A stretch of DNA of 64,000 bases from Candidatus Aenigmatarchaeota archaeon (GTDB lineage: Archaea; Aenigmatarchaeota; Aenigmatarchaeia; CG10238-14; SCSR01), in the NCBI GenBank assembly GCA_030615205.1, contig JAUWZS010000002.1, positions 131,212 through 195,211 on the forward strand, written 5' to 3'. Positions 1,202-60,269 of this stretch are shown here, piece after piece (the first letter of the stretch is position 1; each line of letters opens with the position of its first letter). The notes beneath the pieces are model-generated. The model had not been told where the DNA came from. It ran no database searches and saw nothing but the letters and a program-made list of their open reading frames with translations. The translations under genes and the position numbers were made by a program.

Positions 1202-2137
1202 ATGGCGTATACACTGGTTAAAATTAGAAATAAAAAGAAATATTATTATCTTATAAAAAATATTAGAATAAACAATAAATGGAAAAAATTCACAGTTTAT
1301 TTGGGTTCTAATTTAAATAAAAAACAGCTAATAGATAAGAAGAAAAAATATTCTAAGATATTGGAACAAAGATCTAAAGAGTATCTCAAAAGAATAGATA
1401 TTTTACGAAATCTTATTTCCGATAAAGATTTAAAATTTTTAGAATTAGCCAAACAAAAATATAAAAAATTTTCTAAGCAGAGTATAGCTACCAGAGAAAA
1501 ATATTACGAATGGTTTGTGACAACTTTTACTTACAACTCTAATGCTATAGAGGGCTCAACAATAACATTAGAAGAAACTTCTATGATTTTATTTGAAAAA
1601 ATAACTCCATCAAATAGAACTTTGAGAGAAGTGAGAGAAGTAGAAAATCATAAAAAAGCTTTTGATTATATGTTAACATATAAAGGCGATATAAATAAGA
1701 AATTTGTATTGAGACTTCATAGAATTCTTACAATAGATATACTGCAAAAAGAAGAATCTGGTAAATTTAGAAAAGTTCAAGTTTTCATAAGAGGTGAAAA
1801 ACAAATGCCTCCAAAACCAAAATTAATTTCTCTTGAACTTAATAAACTTATGAAATGGTATAATAAAAATAAGAAAAAATACCATCCTGTTATTGTAGCG
1901 TCCTATTTTCATACTGCTTTTGAAGGAGTACATCCATTTGTAGATTTTAACGGAAGGACAGGACGTTTATTACTCAATTTTATTTTATTAAAAAACAGAT
2001 TTCCAGCGATAGATATACGAACCAAAGAGAAAATACAATATTATAGAGCTATAAAACGTGCGATTAAAGAAGGGAATTTAAAACCATTTGTAAATTTGGT
2101 TATTAAATACATTAAAGAGATGGTTGATAAATTTTAG
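1202..2137 (+). CDS. Fic/DOC family protein (AMPylase-type Fido domain)
   Basis: Fic motif HPFVDFNGRTGR within FEGVHPFVDFNGRTGRLLLNFIL. The gene is very AT-rich compared with its neighbours. Confidence 0.85.
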   Translation: MAYTLVKIRNKKKYYYLIKNIRINNKWKKFTVYLGSNLNKKQLIDKKKKYSKILEQRSKEYLKRIDILRNLISDKDLKFLELAKQKYKKFSKQSIATREKYYEWFVTTFTYNSNAIEGSTITLEETSMILFEKITPSNRTLREVREVENHKKAFDYMLTYKGDINKKFVLRLHRILTIDILQKEESGKFRKVQVFIRGEKQMPPKPKLISLELNKLMKWYNKNKKKYHPVIVASYFHTAFEGVHPFVDFNGRTGRLLLNFILLKNRFPAIDIRTKEKIQYYRAIKRAIKEGNLKPFVNLVIKYIKEMVDKF

Positions 2138-3357: not shown

Positions 3358-3477
3358 GGGCTCGTAGCTCAGCATGGTAGAGCAGCTGGCTTTTAGCATT
3401 AAGCGAAAAAGCGCTGATTCCAATATGACGAAACGGAAGAAACCAGTTGGTCGAGGGTTCGAATCCCTCCGAGCCCA
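3358..3477 (+). tRNA. tRNA-Lys(UUU) with a canonical 37/38 intron of about 46 nt
   Basis: Acceptor GGGCTCG/CGAGCCC. D-arm GCTC-AGCATGGTA-GAGC. Anticodon stem GCTGG/CCAGT with loop CT-TTT-A, interrupted at 3396-3441. T-arm GAGGG-TTCGAAT-CCCTC. Discriminator A; CCA is not encoded. Confidence 0.85.
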
Positions 3478-4686: not shown

Positions 4687-4805
4687 GGGCCCATAACAAC
4701 TAACGTTGTGGGTATAGCTCAGCATGGTAGAGCAGCTGGCTCTTAACCAGTTGGTCGTGGGTTCGAAAGCAATATATTATATCGCCGAAATTCCCACTGG
4801 GCCCA
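4687..4805 (+). tRNA. tRNA-Lys(CUU) with two non-canonical introns (after the 5' acceptor strand, and in the T-loop at 59/60)
   Basis: Exons assemble to GGGCCCA-TA-GCTC-AGCATGGTA-GAGC-A-GCTGG-CTCTTAA-CCAGT-TGGTC-GTGGG-TTCGAAT-CCCAC-TGGGCCC-A. Inserted segments are about 4694-4714 (21 nt) and 4768-4791 (24 nt). A second GGGCCCA copy at 4679-4685 makes the 5' boundary ambiguous. Confidence 0.7.
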
Positions 4806-4904
4806 CTTTATACACATAAAAATTTAAGTTTCTTTACAGAGAGATTATTTACAGAAAGATCATTTAGAGAGAGGCTATTTACAAAAAGATAATCCAGTGG
4901 TATA

Positions 4905-48608: not shown

Positions 48609-48691
48609 ATAATCACTTATTACAACAACTTACCTACAATCACTTATCCGCTTAAAAACAATTTAAATTTAGGAAAATAAAAGTGGTACAT

Positions 48692-49318
48692 ATGAGTTTG
48701 TTTGTTGTTTTAGAGGGGCTTGATGGCTCAGGCGGAGAAACGCAGACCAAGCGCTTAGTAGAGTTTTTACACAGCCGCGGAAGAGCAGTAGAAGTCCTGA
48801 CTTATCCAAATCCAAAAAGTCCTTTTGGTAAAATAATATACGATTATCTGAACAAGAAAATCGAACTGTCGCCTGATGCGCAGATGTCCTTATACGCAAC
48901 TGACATGGCGCTCGACCGTGAAAAAATTAATGCAGCATTGCAACAAGGCAAAATAGTCATTGCAACCCGTTACTTTTTATCTACGCTTGCTTACCAGTGT
49001 GGTGCAAAAGGCGTTCCGCTTGAAAAAGCAGTAGAGTTTGCAAAAATGCTCAAGTTGCCAGTTCCCGACCTTGTTATATGTTTGGACATTTCGCCAGAAA
49101 CTTCAATCAAACGCAAGTTCGGTGAACATAAAAAATTGGACAGGCATGAAGAGAGCAAAGCTTTGTTGGCAAAAGTCAGAGAAGCCTATCGCAATCTTGC
49201 AAATAATAAAGTATTTGCAAAAGAATGGGTTGTTGTAGATAGTGAAAAAAGTATAGAAGCTGTTGCTGCAGAAGTGCAAAAAATCGTTTTGAGTAAATTG
49301 AAATTAGAGTCAAAATAA
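48692..49318 (+). CDS. tmk: thymidylate kinase family protein with non-canonical P-loop
   Basis: The overall Tmk pattern is present (VLEGLDGSG..TQ, RYFLSTLAYQ, PDLVICLD). However the P-loop reads GLDGSGGETQ instead of GxDGxGK(S/T)T, and TRY replaces DRY. Confidence 0.7.
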   Translation: MSLFVVLEGLDGSGGETQTKRLVEFLHSRGRAVEVLTYPNPKSPFGKIIYDYLNKKIELSPDAQMSLYATDMALDREKINAALQQGKIVIATRYFLSTLAYQCGAKGVPLEKAVEFAKMLKLPVPDLVICLDISPETSIKRKFGEHKKLDRHEESKALLAKVREAYRNLANNKVFAKEWVVVDSEKSIEAVAAEVQKIVLSKLKLESK

Positions 49319-49325
49319 GATAGAA

Positions 49326-49559
49326 TTATGCAATAATTTTGTAATATACTATACCATTCTCTTTATCAAAAATTCTAGAAATCTTTTCCTTCTTCGCAAG
49401 AAAGATTAAATGATCTCTGATGATTCTCAGATTAACTGTCCTCCCGACAGACTGGTTTACTCTGTAATTGATACCAAGAGTCGTCATTGAGCCTTTAGAT
49501 TCTCTTAATATCTTTAGAATCAACGGATCAACAAAATCATAGCCTGAAGTTCTTCCCAT
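49326..49559 (-). CDS. small winged-helix-like protein
   Basis: 77 aa. LILKILRESKGSMTTLGINYRVNQSVGRTVNLRIIRDHLIFL is wHTH-like. Confidence 0.45.
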   Translation of the reverse strand: MGRTSGYDFVDPLILKILRESKGSMTTLGINYRVNQSVGRTVNLRIIRDHLIFLAKKEKISRIFDKENGIVYYKIIA

Positions 49560-49637
49560 ATGTAATATTTGGTTTTCCTGCCATATAGTCGTAGTCGTGG
49601 TTCATGTATGTGCAAAATAGGGATTTGAACACCCAAA

Positions 49638-49687
49638 TATTCCTAACTCTTGAGAATTAAAAAAAGAAAAAAGAAAGGTAAAAGATT
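49638..49687. repeat. copy A of the 3-copy intergenic element (31-nt perfect core TCCTAACTCTTGAGAATTAAAAAAAGAAAAA)
   Basis: Directly abuts the stop (49688) of the minus-strand gene remnant. On the minus strand it reads as a pyrimidine/oligo-T tract followed by AATTCTCAAGAGTTAGGA. Confidence 0.9.
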
Positions 49688-49999
49688 TTATTCGTCAATT
49701 GGAGTTATTTTGCAAATATAGGAGCCACAAATCTCGATTAGATCAGTATCACTCAAGTAAGAGCTAGGCCAATTAACCCGTGTCCACCCATGAGCTAACT
49801 TTTGGTCTACTTTTTTAGTAGGTAAATCGGCTTCACGGAAACAGTTGTAATGATTACCTGCATACCAGTCTTGCAAATGTGATGGACACTCAAATTCATT
49901 TGCAGTTACTAAAACAGTAGCTGCCCCACTACCATACGTATCTACATGTGGATTAGTTGTCGTTGGTATTGCTAATGCAATTAGTTAAAAGTCCCTCAT
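49688..49999 (-). pseudogene. small secreted-protein gene interrupted by an in-frame TAA at codon 5
   Basis: ATG(49999) AGG GAC TTT TAA(49987-49985) continues in frame as LIALAIPTTTNPHVDTYGSG...CPSHLQDWYAGNHYNCF... to the stop at 49688. No ATG or GTG follows the TAA; the only alternative start is the TTG at 49876. Confidence 0.5.
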
Positions 50000-50160
50000 T
50001 TAACACCTACTTTCAAGTCCCGACCATTTAACAGAACCTTAAATCAGAGGGTTTTTAAATGATGAAATGCTTATTAGAATATTGGAAATGTTTAAAAGGG
50101 TTTCGAAGAAAGAGTAAGTTTTAGAATTAATATTGTAGAACTATTATTTAAGAAATAAAA

Positions 50161-50865
50161 ATGGTGAAAGAAGGGGGGAAAATGGTAACTAAAGAGGAAG
50201 CTATTAAAGCGGTCCCATCATATATAGTACCTCCCGAATGTTTTATTTGGAATTGGACGGGAGCAAAAGATGGGTGGGGCGTCATTCCAGGCACTGGCTG
50301 TGCCCACTATGTGGCACATGAACATAATCCTAATATTAATCTCACGTCCCATAATACTAAACACAAGTGTTATTACTGTAAAAAATCTCAAAAAACTATA
50401 GGTAATCATAATGGAGGACGTGCAATCCGAGTTACACAAGTTAGAGCGTGGGCCAGGATTCACTATAAGAAGCCTAAACCCCTTAAGGAGGTATGCAAAA
50501 ATGATATATGGCTTAGGATAAGGGGAAAAAGCAGTCATAGTGGAATTGTGGAATCGGTAACATATGAAAAAAGTAAGCAGAAAATTGAGATTAGACATTG
50601 TAAGAAATCTGCAGGCGGCGTTACACACGATATACATGGTACTAACGGTGTTAAAGGTGGATTGTTTTATGGTCCTCCTAAGCCTCCACTTAAGTCTAAG
50701 TTCTTAGGTAATAAAAACACGACAGAAGTACACAACCTCAATAATGAACAAACAAATTGTCAGATAAATGAAATAAAAGATAGCAAGAAATTTGAGTCGT
50801 TGAAAGAAGCACATGACGAGGGATATGATAACTGTCATTATTGCTTAGGGGATTCAAAAAGATAG
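50161..50865 (+). CDS. Cys/His papain-fold (CHAP/NlpC-like) domain fused to an Ada-like zinc motif, paralogue 1
   Basis: GTGCAHYVAHE (putative nucleophile), SSHSGIVESV (putative His), C-terminal HNLNNEQTNCQINEIK...FESLKEAHDEGYDNCHYC. The ATG at 50182 is preceded by GAAGGGGGGAAA and may be the true start. Confidence 0.6.
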   Translation: MVKEGGKMVTKEEAIKAVPSYIVPPECFIWNWTGAKDGWGVIPGTGCAHYVAHEHNPNINLTSHNTKHKCYYCKKSQKTIGNHNGGRAIRVTQVRAWARIHYKKPKPLKEVCKNDIWLRIRGKSSHSGIVESVTYEKSKQKIEIRHCKKSAGGVTHDIHGTNGVKGGLFYGPPKPPLKSKFLGNKNTTEVHNLNNEQTNCQINEIKDSKKFESLKEAHDEGYDNCHYCLGDSKR

Positions 50866-50898
50866 AGATATTAAGTTTTATTTTAAAATATATGGTTC

Positions 50899-51201
50899 TT
50901 ATTCAACCAGGTCATCAAGATAACCACTTAGACTTGCCTTCATGCTTACATCATTATCTAGTTCTCTAAGGGAATCTTGTTTGGCTTTTATGAGTCTGGG
51001 CGACATTAGTGGATTGGCTAATGACCTGTACAAAGTCTTGTGGCCGACTTTGGTTTTAGTGTGGTCTATGACACTCATCAAATTCTCTACTTCTATAAGC
51101 CTCCAGGAAAGATCGTCCATGGTTCTATCCGGCATTTTTTCTTTGAGTTCTGAGTAATTCAGCTCTACTTCCAAGCTTCCATAATGAGTATAGTTAAACA
51201 A
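50899..51201 (-). pseudogene. 100-codon fragment of a MutS-family protein (core-domain start only)
   Basis: IDHTKTKVGHKTLYRSLANPLMSPRLIKAKQDSLREL matches the MutS pattern LD.T.T..G.R.L.RWL..P......I..RQ..I..L. The ORF stops after 100 codons and no ATPase domain follows. Confidence 0.55.
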
Positions 51202-51270
51202 AGTATCAAAGATTCTCGGATATGTGAGTTATGCTAAAATACTCAAATTCTCTGCCAAGAAAAGTGAATG

Positions 51271-51320
51271 TATTCCTAACTCTTGAGAATTAAAAAAAGA
51301 AAAAGAGGGAGAAAGTTTTT
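51271..51320. repeat. copy B of the 3-copy intergenic element
   Basis: TATTCCTAACTCTTGAGAATTAAAAAAAGAAAAAGAGGGAGAAAG, lying about 30 nt 3' of the stop of minus-strand gene 51352..51825. Confidence 0.9.
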
Positions 51321-51351
51321 GATTCTTAGAAAGAAGACAATACTAAAAACA

Positions 51352-51825
51352 TCAAAATGATTCAAACTTCCTTTTTAGGGTTTCAAGAGCCTTTTCATAA
51401 TCTATTAAAATTCTGAAGATAAAAATAAGGGCAGGCGACACCAAATACATAATTATTAATAAGTTTTTAAAAATAGATGAAAGAAAATATATACAAAGAG
51501 AACAATAAAAAGAAACAAGCGTAAATGCAGAAATATAATATAACGCCAAAACTATTTCATCCATTTGCTTTTTTAGGTTTTTTGATTTTGCTTTTCTTGA
51601 TGAATAACCCTTTTCATTAAAGAAATAGTCGACTACACCAAAAACGAATATTGGAAAAGAATAAAATATCGAGACCAGCATTAGTTTACCAAATTCCAAA
51701 TTAAGAAACTTTTCATATTCGCTTAAGTATAAATAACCAACACCAGGAATTGTTAATGCTAAAAATAGAAACAGATATGAAAGAATCTGATATCCTTTTA
51801 ATTTTTCCAAATTTGGTATTACCAT
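51352..51825 (-). CDS. polytopic membrane protein
   Basis: Start moved to MVIPNLEKLKG (ATG 51825). About 4 hydrophobic helices; very AT-rich. Confidence 0.5.
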   Translation of the reverse strand: MVIPNLEKLKGYQILSYLFLFLALTIPGVGYLYLSEYEKFLNLEFGKLMLVSIFYSFPIFVFGVVDYFFNEKGYSSRKAKSKNLKKQMDEIVLALYYISAFTLVSFYCSLCIYFLSSIFKNLLIIMYLVSPALIFIFRILIDYEKALETLKRKFESF

Positions 51826-51889
51826 ATAAAAATAGAATGAGTAGGTTAACTTATAACTCTTTTTAGGATATAAACTAATTGGGGATAAA

Positions 51890-52123
51890 ATGGTCAAAAA
51901 GTCTAAACATGAAATCAAAATTCTAAGAGATTATGCTCTTGGAGGTCTTGCTATCATTACAGCAATCTTCTTAGCTACCTGGCAAGAAATTATGAAAATT
52001 CTTAAACCTAACCTAATATCACTTTTGATTACTTTAGCAGGAACAACATTTGTATTCTTCTTTCTTTTGTATGTATATTTTAATCCTGAGAGATTTCTAC
52101 GTGGTAAAAAACCTAAAAAATAA
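51890..52123 (+). CDS. small two-TM membrane protein
   Basis: 77 aa. LGGLAIITAIFLATW and LLITLAGTTFVFFFLLYVYF. Confidence 0.45.
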   Translation: MVKKSKHEIKILRDYALGGLAIITAIFLATWQEIMKILKPNLISLLITLAGTTFVFFFLLYVYFNPERFLRGKKPKK

Positions 52124-52156
52124 ATCTTAATTTTTTATGAAAGTTCCTAATCTCTA

Positions 52157-52699
52157 TTAAGATGCCGAAACATAATACTCTTTATGATATTCCCGTTCGA
52201 TTGGGATAAATTTCAATTTCTTTTTATCTAGAATTAAAATATATGAACAAAATTTGTGTCCAATTTTTTGACGTAAAATTTTTAATTTTTCTCTTTCTTT
52301 TTCTATTACTTTAGGAAATGTTCTGTTTGTCCAAGAGTATTTTTTTCTCCTTAATTTTATTTCTATCACAGCATTAGGCTTTTCAAACGCGTATGCTTTT
52401 GAAGGTAATCTAAAAATACGAGAACCTTTAACTTTTAGCGTAGAAACGTCAATTACCACAATATCAGACCTTAGGTTTAAACTTGCATCGCTTCCATACC
52501 ATCTAACTTCACAATGTAGAGGTATAGACTTTTCTCCATCTTTAGTTGCTTCAATTTTACCAAAATCCTCGAGTAATAAGTGGTAGAGATAACTCCTCAC
52601 GTCTGCTTCTGTAAGAAATTTATCTGGATGCTTTTTGAACTCGTCTATTAATTTACCTATTTCCTTTTCAATTGATTTGTTTAAAACAGATTGAATCAT
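52157..52699 (-). CDS. PD-(D/E)xK (restriction-endonuclease-fold) nuclease-like protein
   Basis: Ordered core motifs TEADVRSYLYH ... SDIVVIDVS ... NAVIEIKL (E ... D ... ExK). Confidence 0.5.
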   Translation of the reverse strand: MIQSVLNKSIEKEIGKLIDEFKKHPDKFLTEADVRSYLYHLLLEDFGKIEATKDGEKSIPLHCEVRWYGSDASLNLRSDIVVIDVSTLKVKGSRIFRLPSKAYAFEKPNAVIEIKLRRKKYSWTNRTFPKVIEKEREKLKILRQKIGHKFCSYILILDKKKLKFIPIEREYHKEYYVSAS

Positions 52700-52840
52700 A
52701 ATTCCAATTTTAAAATTTAAAGATTTATAGAAAGAAAAGTGTAATTGTGCGTATATGAAAAGAAACTCGCTGTTTTTTATAGTGTGTTTAATGAAGTCTG
52801 TTTTTATTAAAGTTTTAAATTAAGACATATTTAGAAGAAT

Positions 52841-53443
52841 ATGGCAAGATGTAGTAAAAAACTGAAAAAAGAAGTATCAATTAAAATAGCTAGAGATAGC
52901 CTCGATAATGCAAAAAGCTATTTGGAAGATTCGAAGAAGATATTAAATTCTAATCCGGGACATGCTTATGCATTAGGCGTTTTGGGTATAGAAGAACTCC
53001 AAAAGGCTACCATTTTTTATGTACTGCCACGATCGACTGATTTTCCCATGAAACTTGATAAATCTCTCAAGAGTCTTTTTAAAAATCACAAAGCAAAACA
53101 ATTTGGTCAGGAACTAACATCATCAAATAGAATCTTTTTAGAGCTTTGGGATAAATATTTTAAACGTACGGGAGTTAAGCCTATTGATTTAATGAAAGAA
53201 CTTATAAAAAATCCATCAGACAAGAAATTTAAAAAAATAAAAGAAAAAGTAAATAAAAAATTGAAAGTTTATGAAAATATTGAGAATTATAAAAAAATAG
53301 GCATGTACGTTGACTTTATTAATGGAAAAGTTGTTGGTCCTAAAGATATTAATAAAAAATTAGCAAAAAAACTCATAAAGCATTTAGAGGAAGAGATTAA
53401 TTACACTGAACGTCTTTTCGATTCTATAAATAAATTTTTATAA
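52841..53443 (+). CDS. AbiV-like abortive-infection protein (HEPN superfamily)
   Basis: SLDNAKSYLEDSKKILNSNPGHAYALGVLGIEELQKATIFY and the downstream FKNHKAKQF match the AbiV-family pattern as I remember it. Confidence 0.55.
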   Translation: MARCSKKLKKEVSIKIARDSLDNAKSYLEDSKKILNSNPGHAYALGVLGIEELQKATIFYVLPRSTDFPMKLDKSLKSLFKNHKAKQFGQELTSSNRIFLELWDKYFKRTGVKPIDLMKELIKNPSDKKFKKIKEKVNKKLKVYENIENYKKIGMYVDFINGKVVGPKDINKKLAKKLIKHLEEEINYTERLFDSINKFL

Positions 53444-53486
53444 GCTTCCTCCCCACTAAAAATAAATAGAAAGAATAGGTTAAAAT

Positions 53487-53660
53487 ATGAAATGGGAAAA
53501 ACAAAAACAAATCAAAAAGGAAATAAATGAACTATTGCCGAGATTTCCAGAAGGAAATGCTAAAAATTATCGAAGGGTGCTCTATTTCCGTTTACGCTTG
53601 GAAGGCAAGACGAAAGAAGAAGCTTTAGAAGAATTGAGAAAGAGGAAACTCTACCCTTGA
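53487..53660 (+). CDS. possible 57-aa basic protein downstream of the AbiV-like gene
   Basis: Hand translation MKWEKQKQIKKEINELLPRFPEGNAKNYRRVLYFRLRLEGKTKEEALEELRKRKLYP. Purine-rich AATAGGT lies upstream. Below the ORF-track cut-off. Confidence 0.3.
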   Translation: MKWEKQKQIKKEINELLPRFPEGNAKNYRRVLYFRLRLEGKTKEEALEELRKRKLYP

Positions 53661-53712
53661 TAAAAATGGTAAGCCATTTAAGATTTACAAAAAATAAGAG
53701 AAAAATTATGAA

Positions 53713-54831
53713 TTAATATTTCTTCTCTATTATGAAAAATAACATATTTAGAATGCTCTGAACAATTTTAGGGAATTCTTTATAAATCGTTTCTCGTTCT
53801 TCTATCTTATGTCCACCAAAATTTCTCAGACAATATGTTAATGCAACGTCAAATTCGATTGCAATAGGATTGGTTACGAATCCTGTATCTGAATAAGTAT
53901 GGTTTGTTAATTTAGTTATTGTATTTTTAAAATTTCTATCTCTTTCTCCATTAAGAAAGTCTAAATTTTCCTTTTTGAGACTCAGATTAATGTCTTCACA
54001 AAAGAAGAGAGTATAATAAAATAAAGTGGGGGTTCGCCTAAGGCCATATCTAGCTTTTACCGAATCTTCTAGATATATGTTCTTTAACAATACCTCCACT
54101 AATTTACACAATTCAAATATTAAAGTTGTCTCCATGTACGAAGCAATAGTATTTTCTCGTATTCTAGGTTCAATTTCATTGATTATTTTTTTTAACTTAT
54201 AGATAGAATAAACGAAAAATAAAGCTTCTTTATAATAGGAACTTTTCTTCAAAAACTTAGTCCTTAATAAATCAATATCAAGAGAGGTTTGATTGATGGT
54301 CCTGTAACATTCTAATCTCTCATTAAGAAAATTTACAGTTTCAACAACTTTTTGTCTAAAGAATTGTTCTTTTACCCCATGTTCCAAAAGTATAAAACAT
54401 TCTGCAGGTGTAGGTTTATCTGTACCAACCCTGCCTAATCTTTTATCTTCTTGATATGCCTGATGCATTAATAATAATCCTTTTTCTATATCTCCTTTTA
54501 GAATGGACACTGTACCATAAAAATAATAAGGTGTGCCTTTGTGAATTTTATCTGGTTTATTTTTATCTTCCCATTCATGGACTAAAGAGAGTATTTTATC
54601 AAAAACTAAATCACAAAGTTGGATAGGTTTTAAAGTATAATCTGGATTTAACCAGAATGAAGTAAAATTTTCAAATAAATGGTCGTGAATTTCATAGCTG
54701 TCATTTTTGTGTTTTGTAAGAAAATCGAATAAGGCCTGTTTAAAAGATAAGTCTAATATAAATTTTCCATTTCGAAAAAAGATTAATGCTTTTTCAAATT
54801 CGTCGTCTATGGGTTCGTTAAATCTATGCAT
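53713..54831 (-). CDS. hypothetical protein with C-terminal HEPN-type Rx4H motif
   Basis: VALTYCLRNFGGHKIEE, with the His codon at 53809-53811. Sequence looks all-helical. No other motif recognised. Confidence 0.5.
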   Translation of the reverse strand: MHRFNEPIDDEFEKALIFFRNGKFILDLSFKQALFDFLTKHKNDSYEIHDHLFENFTSFWLNPDYTLKPIQLCDLVFDKILSLVHEWEDKNKPDKIHKGTPYYFYGTVSILKGDIEKGLLLMHQAYQEDKRLGRVGTDKPTPAECFILLEHGVKEQFFRQKVVETVNFLNERLECYRTINQTSLDIDLLRTKFLKKSSYYKEALFFVYSIYKLKKIINEIEPRIRENTIASYMETTLIFELCKLVEVLLKNIYLEDSVKARYGLRRTPTLFYYTLFFCEDINLSLKKENLDFLNGERDRNFKNTITKLTNHTYSDTGFVTNPIAIEFDVALTYCLRNFGGHKIEERETIYKEFPKIVQSILNMLFFIIEKKY

Positions 54832-55178
54832 ACTAGAGAATAGTCGATTATGATATTAAAAACTTTCTTATTCTCTTCAGCTTAAAAATGGCTCTTATAG
54901 TAAAGGCATTTTATAGGGTACCTATAATTTGAATCAAAATTTGTATAAGGGTTAACAAAATCGCAAGAAAAGCCGTTACTATAGTAACAGCTTCGGGTCT
55001 TGTAAAAATGGTAAACCCTTTTTCATTCCACACACCTAAATGATTACCCACTTTCTATGTTTAAATATTTTATTTTCCATTGTTTAACTTTCTCTGAATT
55101 TTTTTCAAAACAACAAAGATTCTTTTTATTTCTATAATTATATATGATATACAGAAGATTCCAGTCGTCTGTTAATAC

Positions 55179-55823
55179 CTATAAAAAGCCTATAGGTTCG
55201 TAATTCATCCCTGCCTTTACCTTTGTTCTTTCTTTGAAAACATTCAAATTTTTAACAATTTCTTTTGATTCTTCTTTGAAGAAATACGAAAATAAAAATT
55301 CTAATAAATTTAGAATTTGATAATCGATTGTATAAGTACCGTATTGATGAAATTCTAGATGAACCAAATTATTTCTCTTTATTCGAATCCATTCAAAAAC
55401 TTCTTTAATTCTTTTGATTTGTTTTGGTGATAATGTTTTTGGAAGGAACTCTAGTAATTTATTGCTACATTTCTTAAAAGAGAACTTTCTGTTTTCAATG
55501 CTATCTATAAAATATTTATAATCTTCTTTCAAAATTATGGCTTTCAATAGTATTTCTGTCCCTATCCCAATAAGAATTCCTTTAATTTCGGGTTTAGATT
55601 CTCCGAAAAACCATGTTCCAAAACCAGTGCCTTCGTATGCATAAATAATAAGATTCTCAGCTCGTTTCATTAGTATTTCATGTGGTGAGTTTTTTAGACC
55701 AGTGTCTTTCTCTCTCTTGCTCTCTGGAGATGTATAATATTTTTTAATTCTTTCAATTCCTTTTTTATGATAGGTTTTCAAATCTTTTATGTCGTTTTCC
55801 AACTTTGAATATCTTTGAGGCAT
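55179..55823 (-). CDS. HEPN-like protein (Rx4H)
   Basis: GIGTEILLKAIILKE (N-terminal HEPN-like helix) and WIRIKRNNLVHLE (RNxxxH). Confidence 0.5.
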   Translation of the reverse strand: MPQRYSKLENDIKDLKTYHKKGIERIKKYYTSPESKREKDTGLKNSPHEILMKRAENLIIYAYEGTGFGTWFFGESKPEIKGILIGIGTEILLKAIILKEDYKYFIDSIENRKFSFKKCSNKLLEFLPKTLSPKQIKRIKEVFEWIRIKRNNLVHLEFHQYGTYTIDYQILNLLEFLFSYFFKEESKEIVKNLNVFKERTKVKAGMNYEPIGFL

Positions 55824-55915
55824 ATATAAAACTTTATTGTCAAGTTTTTAAATTTTCTTAAAACTTCATTTAAAATGCTTAAATTCGGGTAAAAACTGAG
55901 TTTTAATTGAAAAGT

Positions 55916-56638
55916 ATGAATGAAATAAAAAGATTACAAAAATTTATGGAAAAACTTAACGAGGTAGTTCGACCATCAATGTTGTTTCATTCACAATGGC
56001 AACTTAGAATTATTGATGAGATAACTAAATCTCAAGCTTTTGTAAAAGAATTGAGAGAATTTCATACACCAACCCATAAAAAATTTAGAAAAGAGTGGGG
56101 GTGGTTAGTAGGTAAACGCCCATTTAGGGTTGGGAACTACTGGTATTCTTATTATAAAAAACGGGGGAATAACAAGTTTAGAGATGCTCTTTGCCGGTGG
56201 TTTTCGAGCAAAAGAAATCAGAATTATTTATTAAATGAGATGAATACTGTTTTTCCAGAAAAAAGAATTGAGATAATAAAAGAGGGTTTCAAATACCATA
56301 GAGATAAAAGATACTCAATATCGATACCATTATTACTTCCTCAAGTCGAAGGGGTTCTTTGGGATTTAGGTGCTAAGAAGGGTAAAGTCAGGAAAGCATA
56401 CAATTCAAGGGAAAAAAAATCAGGTGGTGAATGGGAATTGCCCGAATTATCTAAAGAAATTTTTCCAAATGACAAGTTTCATAAAATCATAGTTCGTGAA
56501 ATCTATTCTGAAAAATTTAGACATCCAGTATTACATGGCCGGAATATCCATAAAGGTAAAGAGAAAGAGATATCTCGATGGAGATCTACACTTTTAATTC
56601 TTACACTTTGGAGATTATCGGATGAATTTAAAAGCTAG
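55916..56638 (+). CDS. HEPN-like protein (Rx4H-G)
   Basis: IPLLLPQVEGVLWDL ... EKFRHPVLHGRN ... RSTLLILTLWRL. ATG at 55916 lies inside the TTG-initiated ORF. Confidence 0.45.
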   Translation: MNEIKRLQKFMEKLNEVVRPSMLFHSQWQLRIIDEITKSQAFVKELREFHTPTHKKFRKEWGWLVGKRPFRVGNYWYSYYKKRGNNKFRDALCRWFSSKRNQNYLLNEMNTVFPEKRIEIIKEGFKYHRDKRYSISIPLLLPQVEGVLWDLGAKKGKVRKAYNSREKKSGGEWELPELSKEIFPNDKFHKIIVREIYSEKFRHPVLHGRNIHKGKEKEISRWRSTLLILTLWRLSDEFKS

Positions 56639-56687
56639 AAATATAATCCATTTTAATACTTCCCACTCCGAGCATTAAAGCACTCCA

Positions 56688-56735
56688 TACTCCTAACTCT
56701 TGAGAATTAAAAAAAGAAAAAGAAAGGAAAAGATT
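56688..56735. repeat. copy C of the 3-copy intergenic element
   Basis: TACTCCTAACTCTTGAGAATTAAAAAAAGAAAAAGAAAGGAAAAGATTA, directly abutting the stop (56734) of minus-strand gene 56734..57252. Confidence 0.9.
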
Positions 56736-57252
56736 AAGCTCCGTATCCTGCTGGAATTCCGTGTGCAGCCCACCAATGCCCTGTTGGGCCTGTTCTTTGT
56801 TTGTGTATGACTTCCATTTGTCCCCAGATACAATATCCACCATCTCTCCAATTTGGATTTGTATTATCGCAGGGTGTTCCTACCCAAACTATCTTAGAAT
56901 GATAGCTTCTTCCTGAACCACCCGGAAACATTCCATTCCACTGATTGTTAACCCATGCGTCAGTAGTCCAAGGCGACTCATCGCCACTATATCTAGTGTT
57001 ATCTGGTCCAAAGACCGCATCATGCCAAGCTTGTGACCATTTCATTACTAGGTGGTCATCTGCATCCTCGCCGATTGCGGTTTCACATGCAACCTTATCA
57101 GTTATCCCTAGCTTTTGTTGACAGTATTGCATTCCTGTTCCAACGAATACTAATGCTTTCCAGTTGTATCCTGCTGGTTTAGCAATTACTGTAGTTGCTA
57201 GCATTAACGAAGCCACTAGAACTAATCCAAACAAAGTTTTTTTGTTTTTCAT
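56734..57252 (-). CDS. secreted Trp/Gly-rich protein, unassigned
   Basis: Signal MKNKKTLFGLVLVASLMLATTVIA. The mature part is rich in W, G and N (WVNNQWNGMFPGGSG, GHWWAAHGIPAGYGA). Confidence 0.55.
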   Translation of the reverse strand: MKNKKTLFGLVLVASLMLATTVIAKPAGYNWKALVFVGTGMQYCQQKLGITDKVACETAIGEDADDHLVMKWSQAWHDAVFGPDNTRYSGDESPWTTDAWVNNQWNGMFPGGSGRSYHSKIVWVGTPCDNTNPNWRDGGYCIWGQMEVIHKQRTGPTGHWWAAHGIPAGYGA

Positions 57253-57497
57253 AGTTGTAATTAAGATAGTTAAAGATTAATCTCTATGAGTAAATTCGAA
57301 ACGCTTTAATATGGAAAAATGCGGCAGACAGTTAGTTGCAGAAGAAGAATGTAATAAATTATTCGAAAAAGTTAAGAAAGTTAAAAGAACGGAAATTGGC
57401 AAAAAAGCTAAATTAATTCTTTTTTGAATCAGTTCTAAAATTTAAGAACTTGCAAATCAAAATAATATTCAACATGCTGTTTAAGTGGTGTTTGTAA

Positions 57498-58124
57498 GTG
57501 GTGTTTGTAAGATTTTTCGATTGGTTGTCCGGACTGCTCGGATTTAGAAAAAATATCACTTTAGGTGTGTATGGCGAGATTAACGTAGGCAAAACTACTT
57601 TGGCAAATAAAATTTCTTTGGATTGGGCAGGCGAGGAGGTAGGCATAGTTTCTAAAATCCCGCATGAAACCAGGACTATCCAGAAAAAAGAAAAAGTAGT
57701 GATACCGCTCAACGGAAGAAGAAAGATCGTGCTTAACTTGTTGGACATGCCTGGACTTGCAACAAAAGTTGATTACAAGCAATTTATGAAATATGGGATA
57801 AAACGCAAGGCTGCAAAGAAGCGAGCAAAAGAAGCGACCAGAGGCGTGATAGAAGCGATTAAATGGTTGGACAATGTTGATACAGTACTTGCTGTAATGG
57901 ATGCAACAAAAGATCCGCTCACGCAAGTCAATCTCACATTGCTAGGCAACCTAGAAGCAAAAGGAATACCGGTAATAATCGTTGCAAACAAGATTGACAA
58001 AAAAAGAGCTAAACCCAAAAGGATAAAAAGTGCTTTCCCAGAATATCCTGTAATTCCTATATCTGCACTCAAAGGAAAAAATATTGATAGATTATACAAG
58101 GCGATTGGTAAACATGCGAAATAA
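57498..58124 (+). CDS. small GTP-binding protein (archaeal GTPase of the DUF2073/DUF2072 operon)
   Basis: G1 GEINVGKTT, G3 DMPG, G4 NKID. GTG start inside a 13-nt tandem duplication. Confidence 0.8.
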   Translation: MVFVRFFDWLSGLLGFRKNITLGVYGEINVGKTTLANKISLDWAGEEVGIVSKIPHETRTIQKKEKVVIPLNGRRKIVLNLLDMPGLATKVDYKQFMKYGIKRKAAKKRAKEATRGVIEAIKWLDNVDTVLAVMDATKDPLTQVNLTLLGNLEAKGIPVIIVANKIDKKRAKPKRIKSAFPEYPVIPISALKGKNIDRLYKAIGKHAK

Positions 58125-58656
58125 AAAATTGCGGAATAAAAACTCTAAGAAGAGAAATGCTAGGAAAAACGCTAAGAAAAATGTAAAGAAAAATTCAAAG
58201 AACAAACGAGCTAAGGTAAATGCGAAAAATATCGCAAGATCTAACTTAAAGATAGATTTTATTTCATCAAATGTTTTGAATAAAAAGAGTGAGAAGAGTA
58301 GGATCACTTATATCTTAGATATAGTAAAAGACGGCACTATACTAGTTACAGACGGTGTGATGAGTCCTGATGAAGAGCTGGACTTGATTAGAGAGACTAT
58401 GCGGAAAGTAGATGATGGGTTTCCGGGAATAGAAGTCTGCAGTTTGAAAAGAGAGGCAGAGGGTTATCAAAGATTTGCAGAGCAACTTATGGAACAAAGA
58501 TACAGTATAAGAAAAGTAATTAATAAAATTATAGGAAGGGCGTCGCCGCAGATAGATCTGAAATATGGGATGACCCTTATCGGACCGTCCAGGCTTATCA
58601 AGAAGATAAAGAAAAGTCCTGATTCGTTCTCAGTTTTTGCACAATTACAAAAGTAA
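58114..58656 (+). CDS. DUF2073-like archaeal protein with K/R-rich N-terminal extension
   Basis: ILDIVKDGTILVTDGVMSPDEELDLIRETMRKVDDGFPGIEVCSL. ATG 58114 overlaps the GTPase stop. Confidence 0.65.
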   Translation: MRNKKLRNKNSKKRNARKNAKKNVKKNSKNKRAKVNAKNIARSNLKIDFISSNVLNKKSEKSRITYILDIVKDGTILVTDGVMSPDEELDLIRETMRKVDDGFPGIEVCSLKREAEGYQRFAEQLMEQRYSIRKVINKIIGRASPQIDLKYGMTLIGPSRLIKKIKKSPDSFSVFAQLQK

Positions 58657-58721
58657 TTTCATACAAAAACAATTTCAGGAACGTAATATTTCAGAGTACG
58701 AATATAATTTAAGTGGTTTTG

Positions 58722-59327
58722 ATGCACAAGTGCGTACGTTGTGGCAATACATATAAAGATAATGATAGTAGCATTCTCCGCGGTTGTACTCAATGCAGTG
58801 GCATTTTCTTTCTCTATATTAAAGGCGAAGCAGATACAAAACAGTTGGATGCAGTGCAGAGGGATCTACAGGAAAGAGACACAACATTAGAAAAAGAGCT
58901 TGTTAAACAAATTGAGAAACGAAGATCCAAGAAGCGCGTTAGAAAGAGAGTCAAAAAGAAAATTAAAAGAAAAGTCAAAGTAAAAGCGAAGGTTAAGAAA
59001 AAAGTTGGCAAGAAAAAAGTCAGGAAACGAGCCGTCAAGAAAAAACCAAGAAAGGAGAAAGTAAGAAAGGAAATAGTAAGAAAAGAAAAAGCGGAAAAAA
59101 TAGAGAAACCAGAGAAAATTGTAAGAAAGGAAGTAATAAAAATTGGGAAGGAAAAATTCGCAGTTGAAGATATTTTTGGAATCGAGACAGTCCGCGTGCC
59201 AAAAGATGGCGTATATGAAATTAATATCGATGGACTGATGAAGAAAAGGCCTGTTATAGTTTTAGAACGCGGGCAAGTTTATCTTATCCATTTGCCGCTT
59301 CTTTTTGAGGAACTGAGCGAAATCTAA
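58722..59327 (+). CDS. DUF2072-like zinc-ribbon protein with Lys-rich middle
   Basis: MHKCVRCGNTY...GCTQCSGIFFLYIK zinc ribbon, then a long K/R/V low-complexity stretch. Third gene of the conserved archaeal GTPase operon. Confidence 0.65.
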   Translation: MHKCVRCGNTYKDNDSSILRGCTQCSGIFFLYIKGEADTKQLDAVQRDLQERDTTLEKELVKQIEKRRSKKRVRKRVKKKIKRKVKVKAKVKKKVGKKKVRKRAVKKKPRKEKVRKEIVRKEKAEKIEKPEKIVRKEVIKIGKEKFAVEDIFGIETVRVPKDGVYEINIDGLMKKRPVIVLERGQVYLIHLPLLFEELSEI

Positions 59328-59561
59328 TTATAGCGAGATGTAAACCTCGAATAACACTCAATTTCTATACCTTCTCCGTCACTCAAGAATAAATGTTATA
59401 TTTTAAATCATGTATTTGCAAGTATGGATAAAATCCACAGGTCCGGATAAAGATGATGAGACGCTACTTGATGATAAAAAGATGAAATCGAGTTACCGCC
59501 CTGATTCCGAAACGCTTTAATTTAGCACTAGAAATAAGTTGGCCGGTTACTCGTGGACTCA

Positions 59562-60269
59562 CTATCTTGTAGACTTACCGGGCTTACAGTACGCACAAGG
59601 ATCATAACCATAGTCCAATGCCTCTTTTTTTGACGAAAAGTGTACCTTGCATTTTATTTCATCTATTTGACAATTTTTCTTTTCCTTTTTTAGATCATGA
59701 AACTCAAATTTCCTTTTTGGGTCCGTAGGGTTACAGTTACCCAACCATCTTGTTTTAGGCAACTTAGGACCGTAGAACTCCCCTCCTCTAACTGATTTAC
59801 TGGTGCCGTACGTTACTGTTGTGGGAGCAGCACTCTGAGGATGGTGAGAGACTCGGATAACGGGCTTTCTACCTGGAGTTACGTCAACCACATAGCCACA
59901 ATGTCCACTTACCCCATCTGGGTTCAACCTAGCCCAAATGTCTCCTTTTCTCACTTTGTGCAACTTGCCAAGTGGGTCTTCACTAGTGCGCATTTCCCAG
60001 CCTTTTCCTAGGAAGTATTGTACTACCTGGCCAACTCTAATTGGGTGGTCATTGTAGCATCTGACCCCTCTGGAAATTGTTATTTTTTTCGCACCAGCAA
60101 CATAATGAGCACAAGGAGTGCCCCCAATTGGGCCATATCCTACTTCATTATTTATATGCCAGAAAAGACATCTTGGTGTTATATATGAAGGCACTTTAGC
60201 TTCTGCGCATTTTGGGTCACAGTATCCTTCTTCTTCTGGTTTTTTCTTGTTAGATTTCTTTTTAGTCAT
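59562..60269 (-). CDS. Cys/His papain-fold (CHAP/NlpC-like) domain fused to an Ada-like zinc motif, paralogue 2
   Basis: GTPCAHYVAGA, VSGHCGYVVDV, C-terminal HDLKKEKKNCQIDEIK...FSSKKEALDYGYDPCAYCKPG. Collinear with 50161..50865. Confidence 0.6.
   Translation of the reverse strand: MTKKKSNKKKPEEEGYCDPKCAEAKVPSYITPRCLFWHINNEVGYGPIGGTPCAHYVAGAKKITISRGVRCYNDHPIRVGQVVQYFLGKGWEMRTSEDPLGKLHKVRKGDIWARLNPDGVSGHCGYVVDVTPGRKPVIRVSHHPQSAAPTTVTYGTSKSVRGGEFYGPKLPKTRWLGNCNPTDPKRKFEFHDLKKEKKNCQIDEIKCKVHFSSKKEALDYGYDPCAYCKPGKSTR

Follow-up and report, generated by a model that had tools for sequence, protein, structure and literature searches.

In a 64-kb window of the genome of a DPANN archaeon (Aenigmatarchaeota)—the window being the whole stretch of 64,000 nt analysed, on a 350,475-bp NCBI contig—a unit of about 50 nt occurs three times between the genes for thymidylate kinase and OapA. 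We read this unit as an intergenic attachment-type (att) recombination site, whose three copies would be the junctions of successive insertions of foreign DNA, and we give this reading roughly even chances of being correct. It starts from the copy number, orientation, and sharp ends of the unit, from its single copy in a close relative, from the strain-specific foreign inserts between the copies, and from the covariation of the unit's arms with the neighbouring DNA. Among the explanations offered by the first-pass annotation of this DNA, a cassette boundary or recombination site is the best supported, given that the relative has a single orthologous copy and that the extra copies bracket strain-specific DNA. 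The three copies are as follows.

49638–49687, minus strand: copy A of the unit, with the minus-strand sequence AATCTTTTACCTTTCTTTTTTCTTTTTTTAATTCTCAAGAGTTAGGAATA and an exact core; orthologous to the single copy of the relative.
51271–51318, minus strand: copy B of the unit, with the 5' arm AAACTTTCTCCCTC and the 3' end GGAATA.
56688–56735, minus strand: copy C of the unit, with the 3' end GGAGTA, sharing 2 nt with the TAA stop of a gene for a W-rich secreted protein.

At the centre of the unit, the 31-mer TCCTAACTCTTGAGAATTAAAAAAAGAAAAA is found exactly at 49641–49671, 51274–51304, and 56691–56721, always on the plus strand, in agreement with the identical, co-oriented elements first described at 49641, 51274, and 56691. 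The window holds no fourth match to this 31-mer at up to three mismatches, and no diverged fourth copy of the unit was seen near oapA or elsewhere in the window. The claim that such a match cannot arise by chance in 64 kb was borne out by 100 dinucleotide-preserving shuffles, which gave no match (0 expected). Similarity among the copies, initially put at about 45–50 nt, reaches 48–52 nt by gapped pairwise alignment and has sharp ends, and the spacings between copies are 1633 and 5417 nt. Read on the minus strand, the coding strand of the adjoining genes, the unit is AATCTTTT(A)CCTTTC(T)TTTTTCTTTTTTT-AATTCTCAAGAGTTAGGA(A/G)TA or, in short form, AATCTTTT..CCTTTC..T5CT7-AATTCTCAAGAGTTAGGARTA, with an oligo-T tract that is T5CT7 in general and T6CT7 in copy A. 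The repeat is present in the reads and is not one assembler's product, since the Logan assembly of this sample (SRR14872670), made independently with k=31, breaks exactly at each copy: the end of contig L085 lies in A, L003 (1659 nt) runs from A to B, L002 (5444 nt) from B to C, and the start of L001 lies in C. With this k, recombination at the unit would give junctions without new k-mers.

The close relative is represented by two contigs (L176 from JGI and L175 from ENA), which were found via cluster mates, at 90% identity or more, of a 77-aa protein encoded beside copy A. Both contigs have the order oapB–oapA–[163-aa secreted-protein gene]–one unit–77-aa gene, the unit lying at L176 1683–1734 between the last two genes. 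When the contigs were compared with the window by blastn, they aligned at 49326–49690 and from 57433 onward, with nothing between; the first of these stretches runs from the 77-aa gene through the region upstream of it and copy A as far as the adjoining stop codon. Copy A is thus the orthologous copy, as the alignment of the relative's unit runs through it. About 0.7 kb and one gene in the relative correspond to 7.7 kb, eleven open reading frames (ORFs), and two extra units in the window, and the att reading is supported by the fact that these two extra copies bracket exactly the extra DNA. The borders of the comparison are given below.

49326–49602, minus strand: conserved anchor, consisting of the 77-aa stand-alone winged-helix gene (49326–49559) and its 43-nt upstream region with the TATA-like CTATATGG.
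49603–49637, minus strand: 35-nt insertion (minus-strand TTTGGGTGTTCAAATCCCTATTTTGCACATACATG), exactly at the GGAATA end of copy A and absent from the relative.
57433–58124, plus strand: conserved right flank (blastn, Pfam), in which the match to the relative begins again at TTCTAAAATTTAAGAAC, at a distance of 65 nt upstream of oapA (57498–58124).

The relative's unit has the same two ends as those in the window: it begins right after the TAA of the 163-aa gene and stops at GGAATA, which is followed directly by AACCACGACTACGAC, the upstream region of the 77-aa gene, identical to that of the window at 43/43 positions. All four units (A, B, C, and the relative's) share the same 3' junction, just after GGARTA, and the sequences beyond this base are unrelated: the relative continues with AACCACG, copy A with TTTGGGT, copy B with CATTCAC, and copy C with TGGAGTG. 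The sole variant on the 3' side is the G of copy C (GGAGTA versus GGAATA). The pyrimidine arms on the 5' side are AATCTTTTACCTTTCT6 in A, AATCTTTTCCTTTCT5 in C, AAACTTTCTCCCTCT5 in B, and AATCTTTTCTTTCCTTTCT6 in the relative. The unit is therefore a mosaic, in which the 5' arm covaries with the upstream gene and the 3' end with the downstream block, around 31 nt that are identical; this is the pattern expected of a reciprocal crossover inside the core.

Nucleotide identity to the relative amounts to 96.2% in the region of the 77-aa gene (L176), 91% in oapA, and 80% in oapB. The first aligned stretch (window 49326–49690 versus L176 1683–2011) ends exactly at the stop codon of the 77-aa gene, and in the relative thymidylate kinase is not a neighbour of that gene; to judge by these identities and borders, the anchor block of unit, upstream region, and 77-aa gene may itself have been exchanged recently. 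The 77-aa protein gave an AlphaFold2 (AF2) model with a predicted local distance difference test (pLDDT) score of 83 and Foldseek matches to the winged helices of Fur, PadR, and RosR. The 35-nt insertion contains GGGTGTTCAAATCCC, which looks like a tRNA T arm yet has no tRNA score. A tRNA fragment or tRNA-derived att, suggested by this sequence beside copy A, was rejected in the absence of any tRNA signal at the copies (ARAGORN; Rfam at gathering thresholds and at E≤10). ARAGORN found no tRNA anywhere in the window.

Four unrelated genes adjoin the unit, three in the window and one in the relative, as had been noted for the three; a proposed paralogy between the remnant at copy A and the W-rich gene was rejected because the two proteins show no relationship (BLASTP E = 26). 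On the minus strand, the stop codon at 49688–49690 abuts copy A (17 nt from the core), that of the W-rich gene (56734–56736) overlaps copy C, and that of a membrane protein gene (51352–51354) is separated from copy B by 34 nt and from the core of that copy by 48 nt. The earlier statement that each copy lies within about 30 nt of a stop codon consequently describes A and C well, with B slightly beyond that distance.

Oligo-T tracts are a known archaeal termination signal. In the unit, T5CT7 is located 13–48 nt past the stops of the three window genes and the one gene in the relative, so that each has at least five T just 3' of its stop, our requirement for a terminator. A pyrimidine tract also stands 3' of homologues elsewhere, namely those of the W-rich gene in contig L092 and of the remnant in L094, in both cases without AATTCTCAAGAGTTAGGA. 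In L094, a pyrimidine tract that finishes with TTTTTTCTAAAAA is found in almost all intergenic regions, and in several a promoter-like TTAAATCTTTAAC precedes the ATG by about 27 nt; both kinds of sequence appear to be lineage-typical terminator and promoter signals. Because such tracts follow the stops of the L092 and L094 homologues, and in L094 of most genes, the T-rich half of the unit is, judging from sequence, a putative terminator of a type common in this lineage. The same homologues lack AATTCTCAAGAGTTAGGA behind their tracts, so a terminator alone does not explain the exact repeat, and the special part of the unit is the 18–21-mer AATTCTCAAGAGTTAGGA together with the exact T5CT7. The idea of a shared terminator thus holds for the pyrimidine/oligo-T half and fails for the AATTCTCAAGAGTTAGGA part. 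Most genes of the window are without the module. A Fic-domain gene (1202–2137, plus strand) has in its 3' flank (2138–2180) an extended run of pyrimidines, TTCTTTCTATTCTTTCTTTTCTTTCTC, which recalls the 5' half of the unit in style and is one of few such tracts in the window.

The DNA delimited by the copies and by the right flank falls into three blocks.

49688–51270, both strands: block 3, between copies A and B, absent from the relative; a pseudogene, a Cys/His-rich protein, and a MutS fragment.
49688–49984, minus strand: pseudogene of a 110–116-aa secreted protein, nearly full length, with an in-frame stop.
50161–50865, plus strand: 234-aa Cys/His-rich protein of block 3.
50899–51201, minus strand: 100-aa N-terminal MutS domain III fragment, matching only the start of the domain (E = 3e-9).
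51319–56687, both strands: block 2, between copies B and C; seven genes, 28.7% GC.
56734–57432, minus strand: block 1, the W-rich secreted-protein gene (56734–57252) and its upstream region, in the slot of the relative's unrelated 163-aa gene.

The gene at the left end of block 3 had been called a remnant; it is degraded as claimed, and is in fact a nearly full-length pseudogene, whose homologues P0121 and P0122 adjoin an M10 peptidase gene elsewhere. The 234-aa protein has a chromosomal paralogue of 235 aa, 38% identical and encoded just past oapC (59562–60269), and each of the two ends in a GYD-C-YC motif with a faint match to the Ada zinc-binding domain. The MutS ORF is cut off by the converging gene 50161–50865, leaving a gene fragment. 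Block 2 encodes a 157-aa and a 77-aa membrane protein, a 180-aa protein, an AbiV/HEPN protein (AbiV matches in both Pfam and NCBIfam), and proteins of 372, 214, and 230–243 aa; the six besides AbiV are without family assignment. By eye, an R-x4-6-H motif can be seen in the 372-, 214-, and 243-aa proteins (RNFGGH, RNNLVH, and RHPVLH; 52841–56638), and, to judge by such motifs, defence or toxin genes of the HEPN type may be clustered in block 2. The GC content of block 2 is below that of every other 5.4-kb window in the sequence (minimum 33.6%). All block 2 and block 3 proteins that were looked up, including all seven of block 2, are singletons among some 15 billion sequences; in contrast, the same collection has cluster mates, at 90% identity, for the 77-aa, OapA, and W-rich proteins encoded in the flanks. 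The island proteins have no relatives in IMG/VR, and the island DNA has no match among the plasmids of PLSDB or the phages of INPHARED.

The W-rich gene of block 1 is 84–86% identical at the nucleotide level to genes on two bacterial-type contigs, L086 (3355–3890; with sigma-70, MetK, and AddB genes) and L087 (10001–10528; with LexA and S30AE genes), and a further homologue in L089 (6001–6513) sits among a resolvase, a prim-pol, and an integrase. From these matches, the gene looks like mobile cargo, a recent transfer of a small secreted protein between bacteria and archaea. In L087, a 27–37-nt hairpin repeat, AAGCTTAACGGCTAACCCCCTTAGCCGTTTGAA, occurs four times (454, 9857, 11305, and 12535), with two copies flanking the W-rich homologue and its neighbour.

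On the att reading, these arrangements would have arisen as follows. The upstream, pyrimidine/oligo-T half of the site would terminate whichever gene lies upstream, and strand exchange would take place inside the 31-bp identity block formed by AATTCTCAAGAGTTAGGA and T5CT7. A circular DNA carrying one site would recombine with the chromosomal copy, yielding site–insert–site, and a second event of the same kind would produce three copies and two bounded blocks. We infer that the exchange was site-specific rather than homologous, that insertion passed through a circular intermediate, and that the recombinase, which the inserts lack, either disappeared after integration or acts in trans, coming from the host or from another element. 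In keeping with this picture, direct repeats bracket stretches of 1.6 and 5.4 kb that are absent from L175/L176, and a single, attB-like repeat marks the unoccupied site of the relative, with the caveat that the neighbouring gene on the oapA side also differs there. The cargo (AbiV/HEPN, gene fragments, and a W-rich gene shared with bacteria) is typical of islands, and we also count in favour of the att reading the low GC of block 2 and the singleton proteins of blocks 2 and 3. The same holds for the variability of the DNA upstream of oapA: the stretch from thymidylate kinase (48683–49318) to oapA measures 8.2 kb in the window and 0.9 kb, with one gene, in L005, the only relative syntenic on both sides, and in all other Aenigmatarchaeota loci examined the DNA upstream of oapA is different again, with small winged-helix, secreted-protein, or HEPN/nucleotidyltransferase-like genes.

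Several results weigh against an att site. Scans of the island and of some 45 further ORFs from the window and the relative with Pfam, PHROGs, PADLOC, and NCBIfam recognised no integrase, transposase, or other recombinase, so the integrase that would be expected in or beside such an element is missing. The best dyad in the unit pairs 8/11 positions around a 2-nt spacer, and 77/300 shuffles match or beat it. No copy of the unit was found outside the lineage: an exact 22-mer has no match in the GTDB representative genomes or the JGI metagenomes, and a 17-mer has a single match in IMG/VR (L084), without flank similarity and taken as chance. Among more than 170 related loci, the unit occurs only in the same-sample Logan contigs and in L175/L176. 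Moreover, an insertion at the unit alone leaves unexplained why the gene on its oapA side is the 163-aa gene in the relative and the W-rich gene in the window, and a plain att model does not predict that 3/4 of the upstream genes end exactly at the unit. These last two facts leave room for a variant that we consider unlikely, namely a hitherto undescribed cassette-capture platform in DPANN archaea—integron-like, with a short, unstructured double-strand site that gives a terminator, and sometimes a stop codon, to the upstream gene, and with the recombinase encoded elsewhere. Such a platform could take up bacterial genes, for example the W-rich gene.

The missing recombinase and dyad would suit general recombination without a dedicated enzyme. 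On this account the unit is no more than a conserved piece of intergenic DNA, short in length (the terminator plus the upstream region of the 77-aa gene), that anchored Campbell-type integration or homology-facilitated illegitimate recombination, with related strains or elements carrying the same stretch as donors. Homologues of two cargo genes elsewhere already have the pyrimidine half, so that partial homology pre-exists, and the 96% identity of unit plus 77-aa gene, as opposed to 91% and 80% in the neighbours, suggests recent exchange between lineages. We nevertheless judge this account rather unlikely, if the most serious to be set beside the att site, as identity extends over only 31–50 bp and all the junctions on either side coincide to the base. 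In addition, donors with the unit beside the 77-aa gene would have brought that flank, whereas copies B and C have no such sequence and are followed by unrelated DNA, which argues against homologous exchange. A functional 3' module—an efficient oligo-T terminator joined to a protein-binding site, perhaps for the 77-aa winged-helix protein, and copied behind genes to insulate or regulate them—would account for the position of T5CT7 directly after stops on the coding strand, where oligo-T is a known archaeal signal, for the four unrelated genes that end at the unit, for the conserved copy 44 nt upstream of the winged-helix gene, and for the stop codons in all three frames of the plus strand. Apart from recombination, however, no mechanism would place an identical 50-nt module behind unrelated genes; the 18–21-nt part lies downstream of the T tract and so mostly outside the transcript, most genes of the window do without the module, no RNA structure was found, and the coincidence of the copies with the borders of strain-specific DNA is left unexplained. 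A small probability is all that we assign to it.

The order of the blocks might also be an artefact, with blocks 2 and 3 being small circles or the DNA of co-existing strains that the assembler strung in series through the repeat. The three-way exact identity of 31 nt equals the k of the Logan assembly, from which the order cannot be read; each block forms a contig there that starts and finishes with the unit, as a circle would, and the GC of block 2 is deviant. Against this stand the 350-kb NCBI contig from which the window comes and the differences between copies within about 50 nt, which let ordinary reads and larger k resolve the path, and we regard threading as quite improbable; even if it were true, a unit shared by chromosome and circles is what an att site predicts. 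An integron-like cassette array without integrase (CALIN), in which each block ends in an attC-like site, seems very improbable. It is true that each block ends with a same-strand gene and then the unit, that the terminal GTTAGGA agrees with the R' core GTTRRRY at 6/7 positions, that CALINs are reported in Aenigmatarchaeota (PMC9668308), and that one cargo gene is shared with bacteria. Yet the unit forms no single-strand hairpin (on either strand, as DNA or as RNA, it folds less strongly than shuffled sequence), no complementary R'' (RYYYAAC; TCCTAAC-like) lies upstream, no IntI is present, and the seven genes of block 2 occupy both strands and have promoters of their own. An integron or CALIN is recognised by a nearby IntI or by at least two sites less than 4 kb apart with short, mostly co-oriented ORFs, and the 5.4-kb spacing here exceeds that limit. 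The further suggestion of a plus-strand promoter, with ATTAAAAAAA as the TATA box driving antisense RNAs into the three genes, is extremely improbable: only the A/T-rich stretch itself speaks for it, and no plus-strand ORF or RNA family lies downstream, no BRE-like (transcription factor B recognition) element is present, and neither the sharp GGARTA boundary nor the relative's single copy at the border of conserved and variable DNA would be explained.

Other candidates were tried and set aside. No structure in the element was detected: RNA and single-stranded DNA folds of both strands were no better than shuffles (z-scores −0.04 to +1.7), a 10-bp hairpin on the minus strand, which depends on three G.U pairs, lacks significance, and no Rfam family was found at the unit. 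A dif-like site was rejected because no two inverted arms of about 11 bp around a 6-bp spacer rose above chance, and a miniature inverted-repeat transposable element (MITE) or insertion sequence because the copies are direct repeats for which no inverted partner was found. A scan for bacterial-type promoters and terminators returned nothing at the copies.

Compared with known systems, the proposed att site resembles archaeal att-flanked elements in that repeats tens of bp long and in direct orientation enclose strain-specific, foreign DNA of low GC, with a single copy in a relative, a tandem arrangement, an AT-rich intergenic target, and no integrase. Archaeal integrated elements are reported with an attB in AT-rich intergenic DNA (prophage PsiM100), with loss of the integrase after integration, and with tandem integration at one locus (PMC8371274). 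The inserts at the unit differ in having no integrase or integrase remnant at all and in being small (1.6 and 5.4 kb), without replication or virion genes; in addition, the target is not a tRNA gene, and the site would also act as terminator for the gene upstream of it. Integron cassette arrays and CALINs, which are reported in Archaea including Aenigmatarchaeota (PMC9668308), likewise show a gene followed by a conserved site at the block end with no nearby integrase, and one cargo gene of the present blocks has crossed between domains; the terminal GTTAGGA of the unit resembles GTTRRRY. The unit, in contrast, has neither a hairpin fold nor an R''/L''/L'/R' organisation, and its blocks are multigene and use both strands.

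A different parallel is offered by the IMEX elements (integrative mobile elements exploiting Xer) at dif and the pdif modules of Acinetobacter plasmids, which are Xer-dependent. Like the blocks described here, they are modules without a recombinase of their own and have repeated short sites at their borders; a host enzyme moves them in trans, as may be the case for the blocks. An archaeal XerA/dif system is described (PMC2958812); dif-type sites, however, are 11-6-11 imperfect inverted repeats, whereas the unit has no dyad above chance and is unlike the ATAA-N6-TTAT inner arms, and no xerA was seen in the ORFs scanned (the 64-kb window and about 4 kb more of the 350-kb contig). Archaeal oligo-T terminators share with the unit a T5CT7-like tract directly 3' of stops, as after the L092 and L094 homologues, but a terminator requires neither exact identity over 31 nt nor a conserved 18–21-mer past the T run. 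If the att reading is correct, the feature is of a familiar kind, tandem integrase-less insertions at an att site, in an under-studied lineage.

The archaeal nature of the window shows in an intron-containing tRNA and in the origin-associated oapA/B/C cluster (57498–59327), whose OapA is at most 81% identical to proteins of metagenome-assembled genomes (MAGs) of Candidatus Aenigmatarchaeota. Cumulative GC skew peaks at about 58000–60000 of the window, and just beyond oapABC gene orientation changes from mostly plus on the left to mostly minus on the right; no Orc1/Cdc6 gene was recognised among the window ORFs scanned. The window also contains two related tRNA-Lys-like genes at 4708–4815 and 3358–3477 (both plus strand). 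One of these (UUU) has a canonical 49-nt intron, and the other (CUU), whose T arm holds an insert of about 24 nt, reaches 28 bits, below the Rfam gathering threshold of 29. A 27-mer repeated at 3365 and 4715, considered as a second att pair, proved to belong to these two genes.

DPANN archaea have tiny genomes and depend on hosts, and their acquisition of genes is poorly understood. The locus described here is a defined 50-bp spot beside the conserved oapABC genes, with cargo that differs by lineage (AbiV/HEPN defence genes, genes for secreted proteins, and one gene that bacteria also have), and in this genome two insertions appear to have piled up there in tandem. If the unit is only a terminator copied by ordinary recombination, the finding would be of local interest; if it is a site served by a recombinase in trans, it would provide a concrete and testable handle on gene flow into Aenigmatarchaeota.

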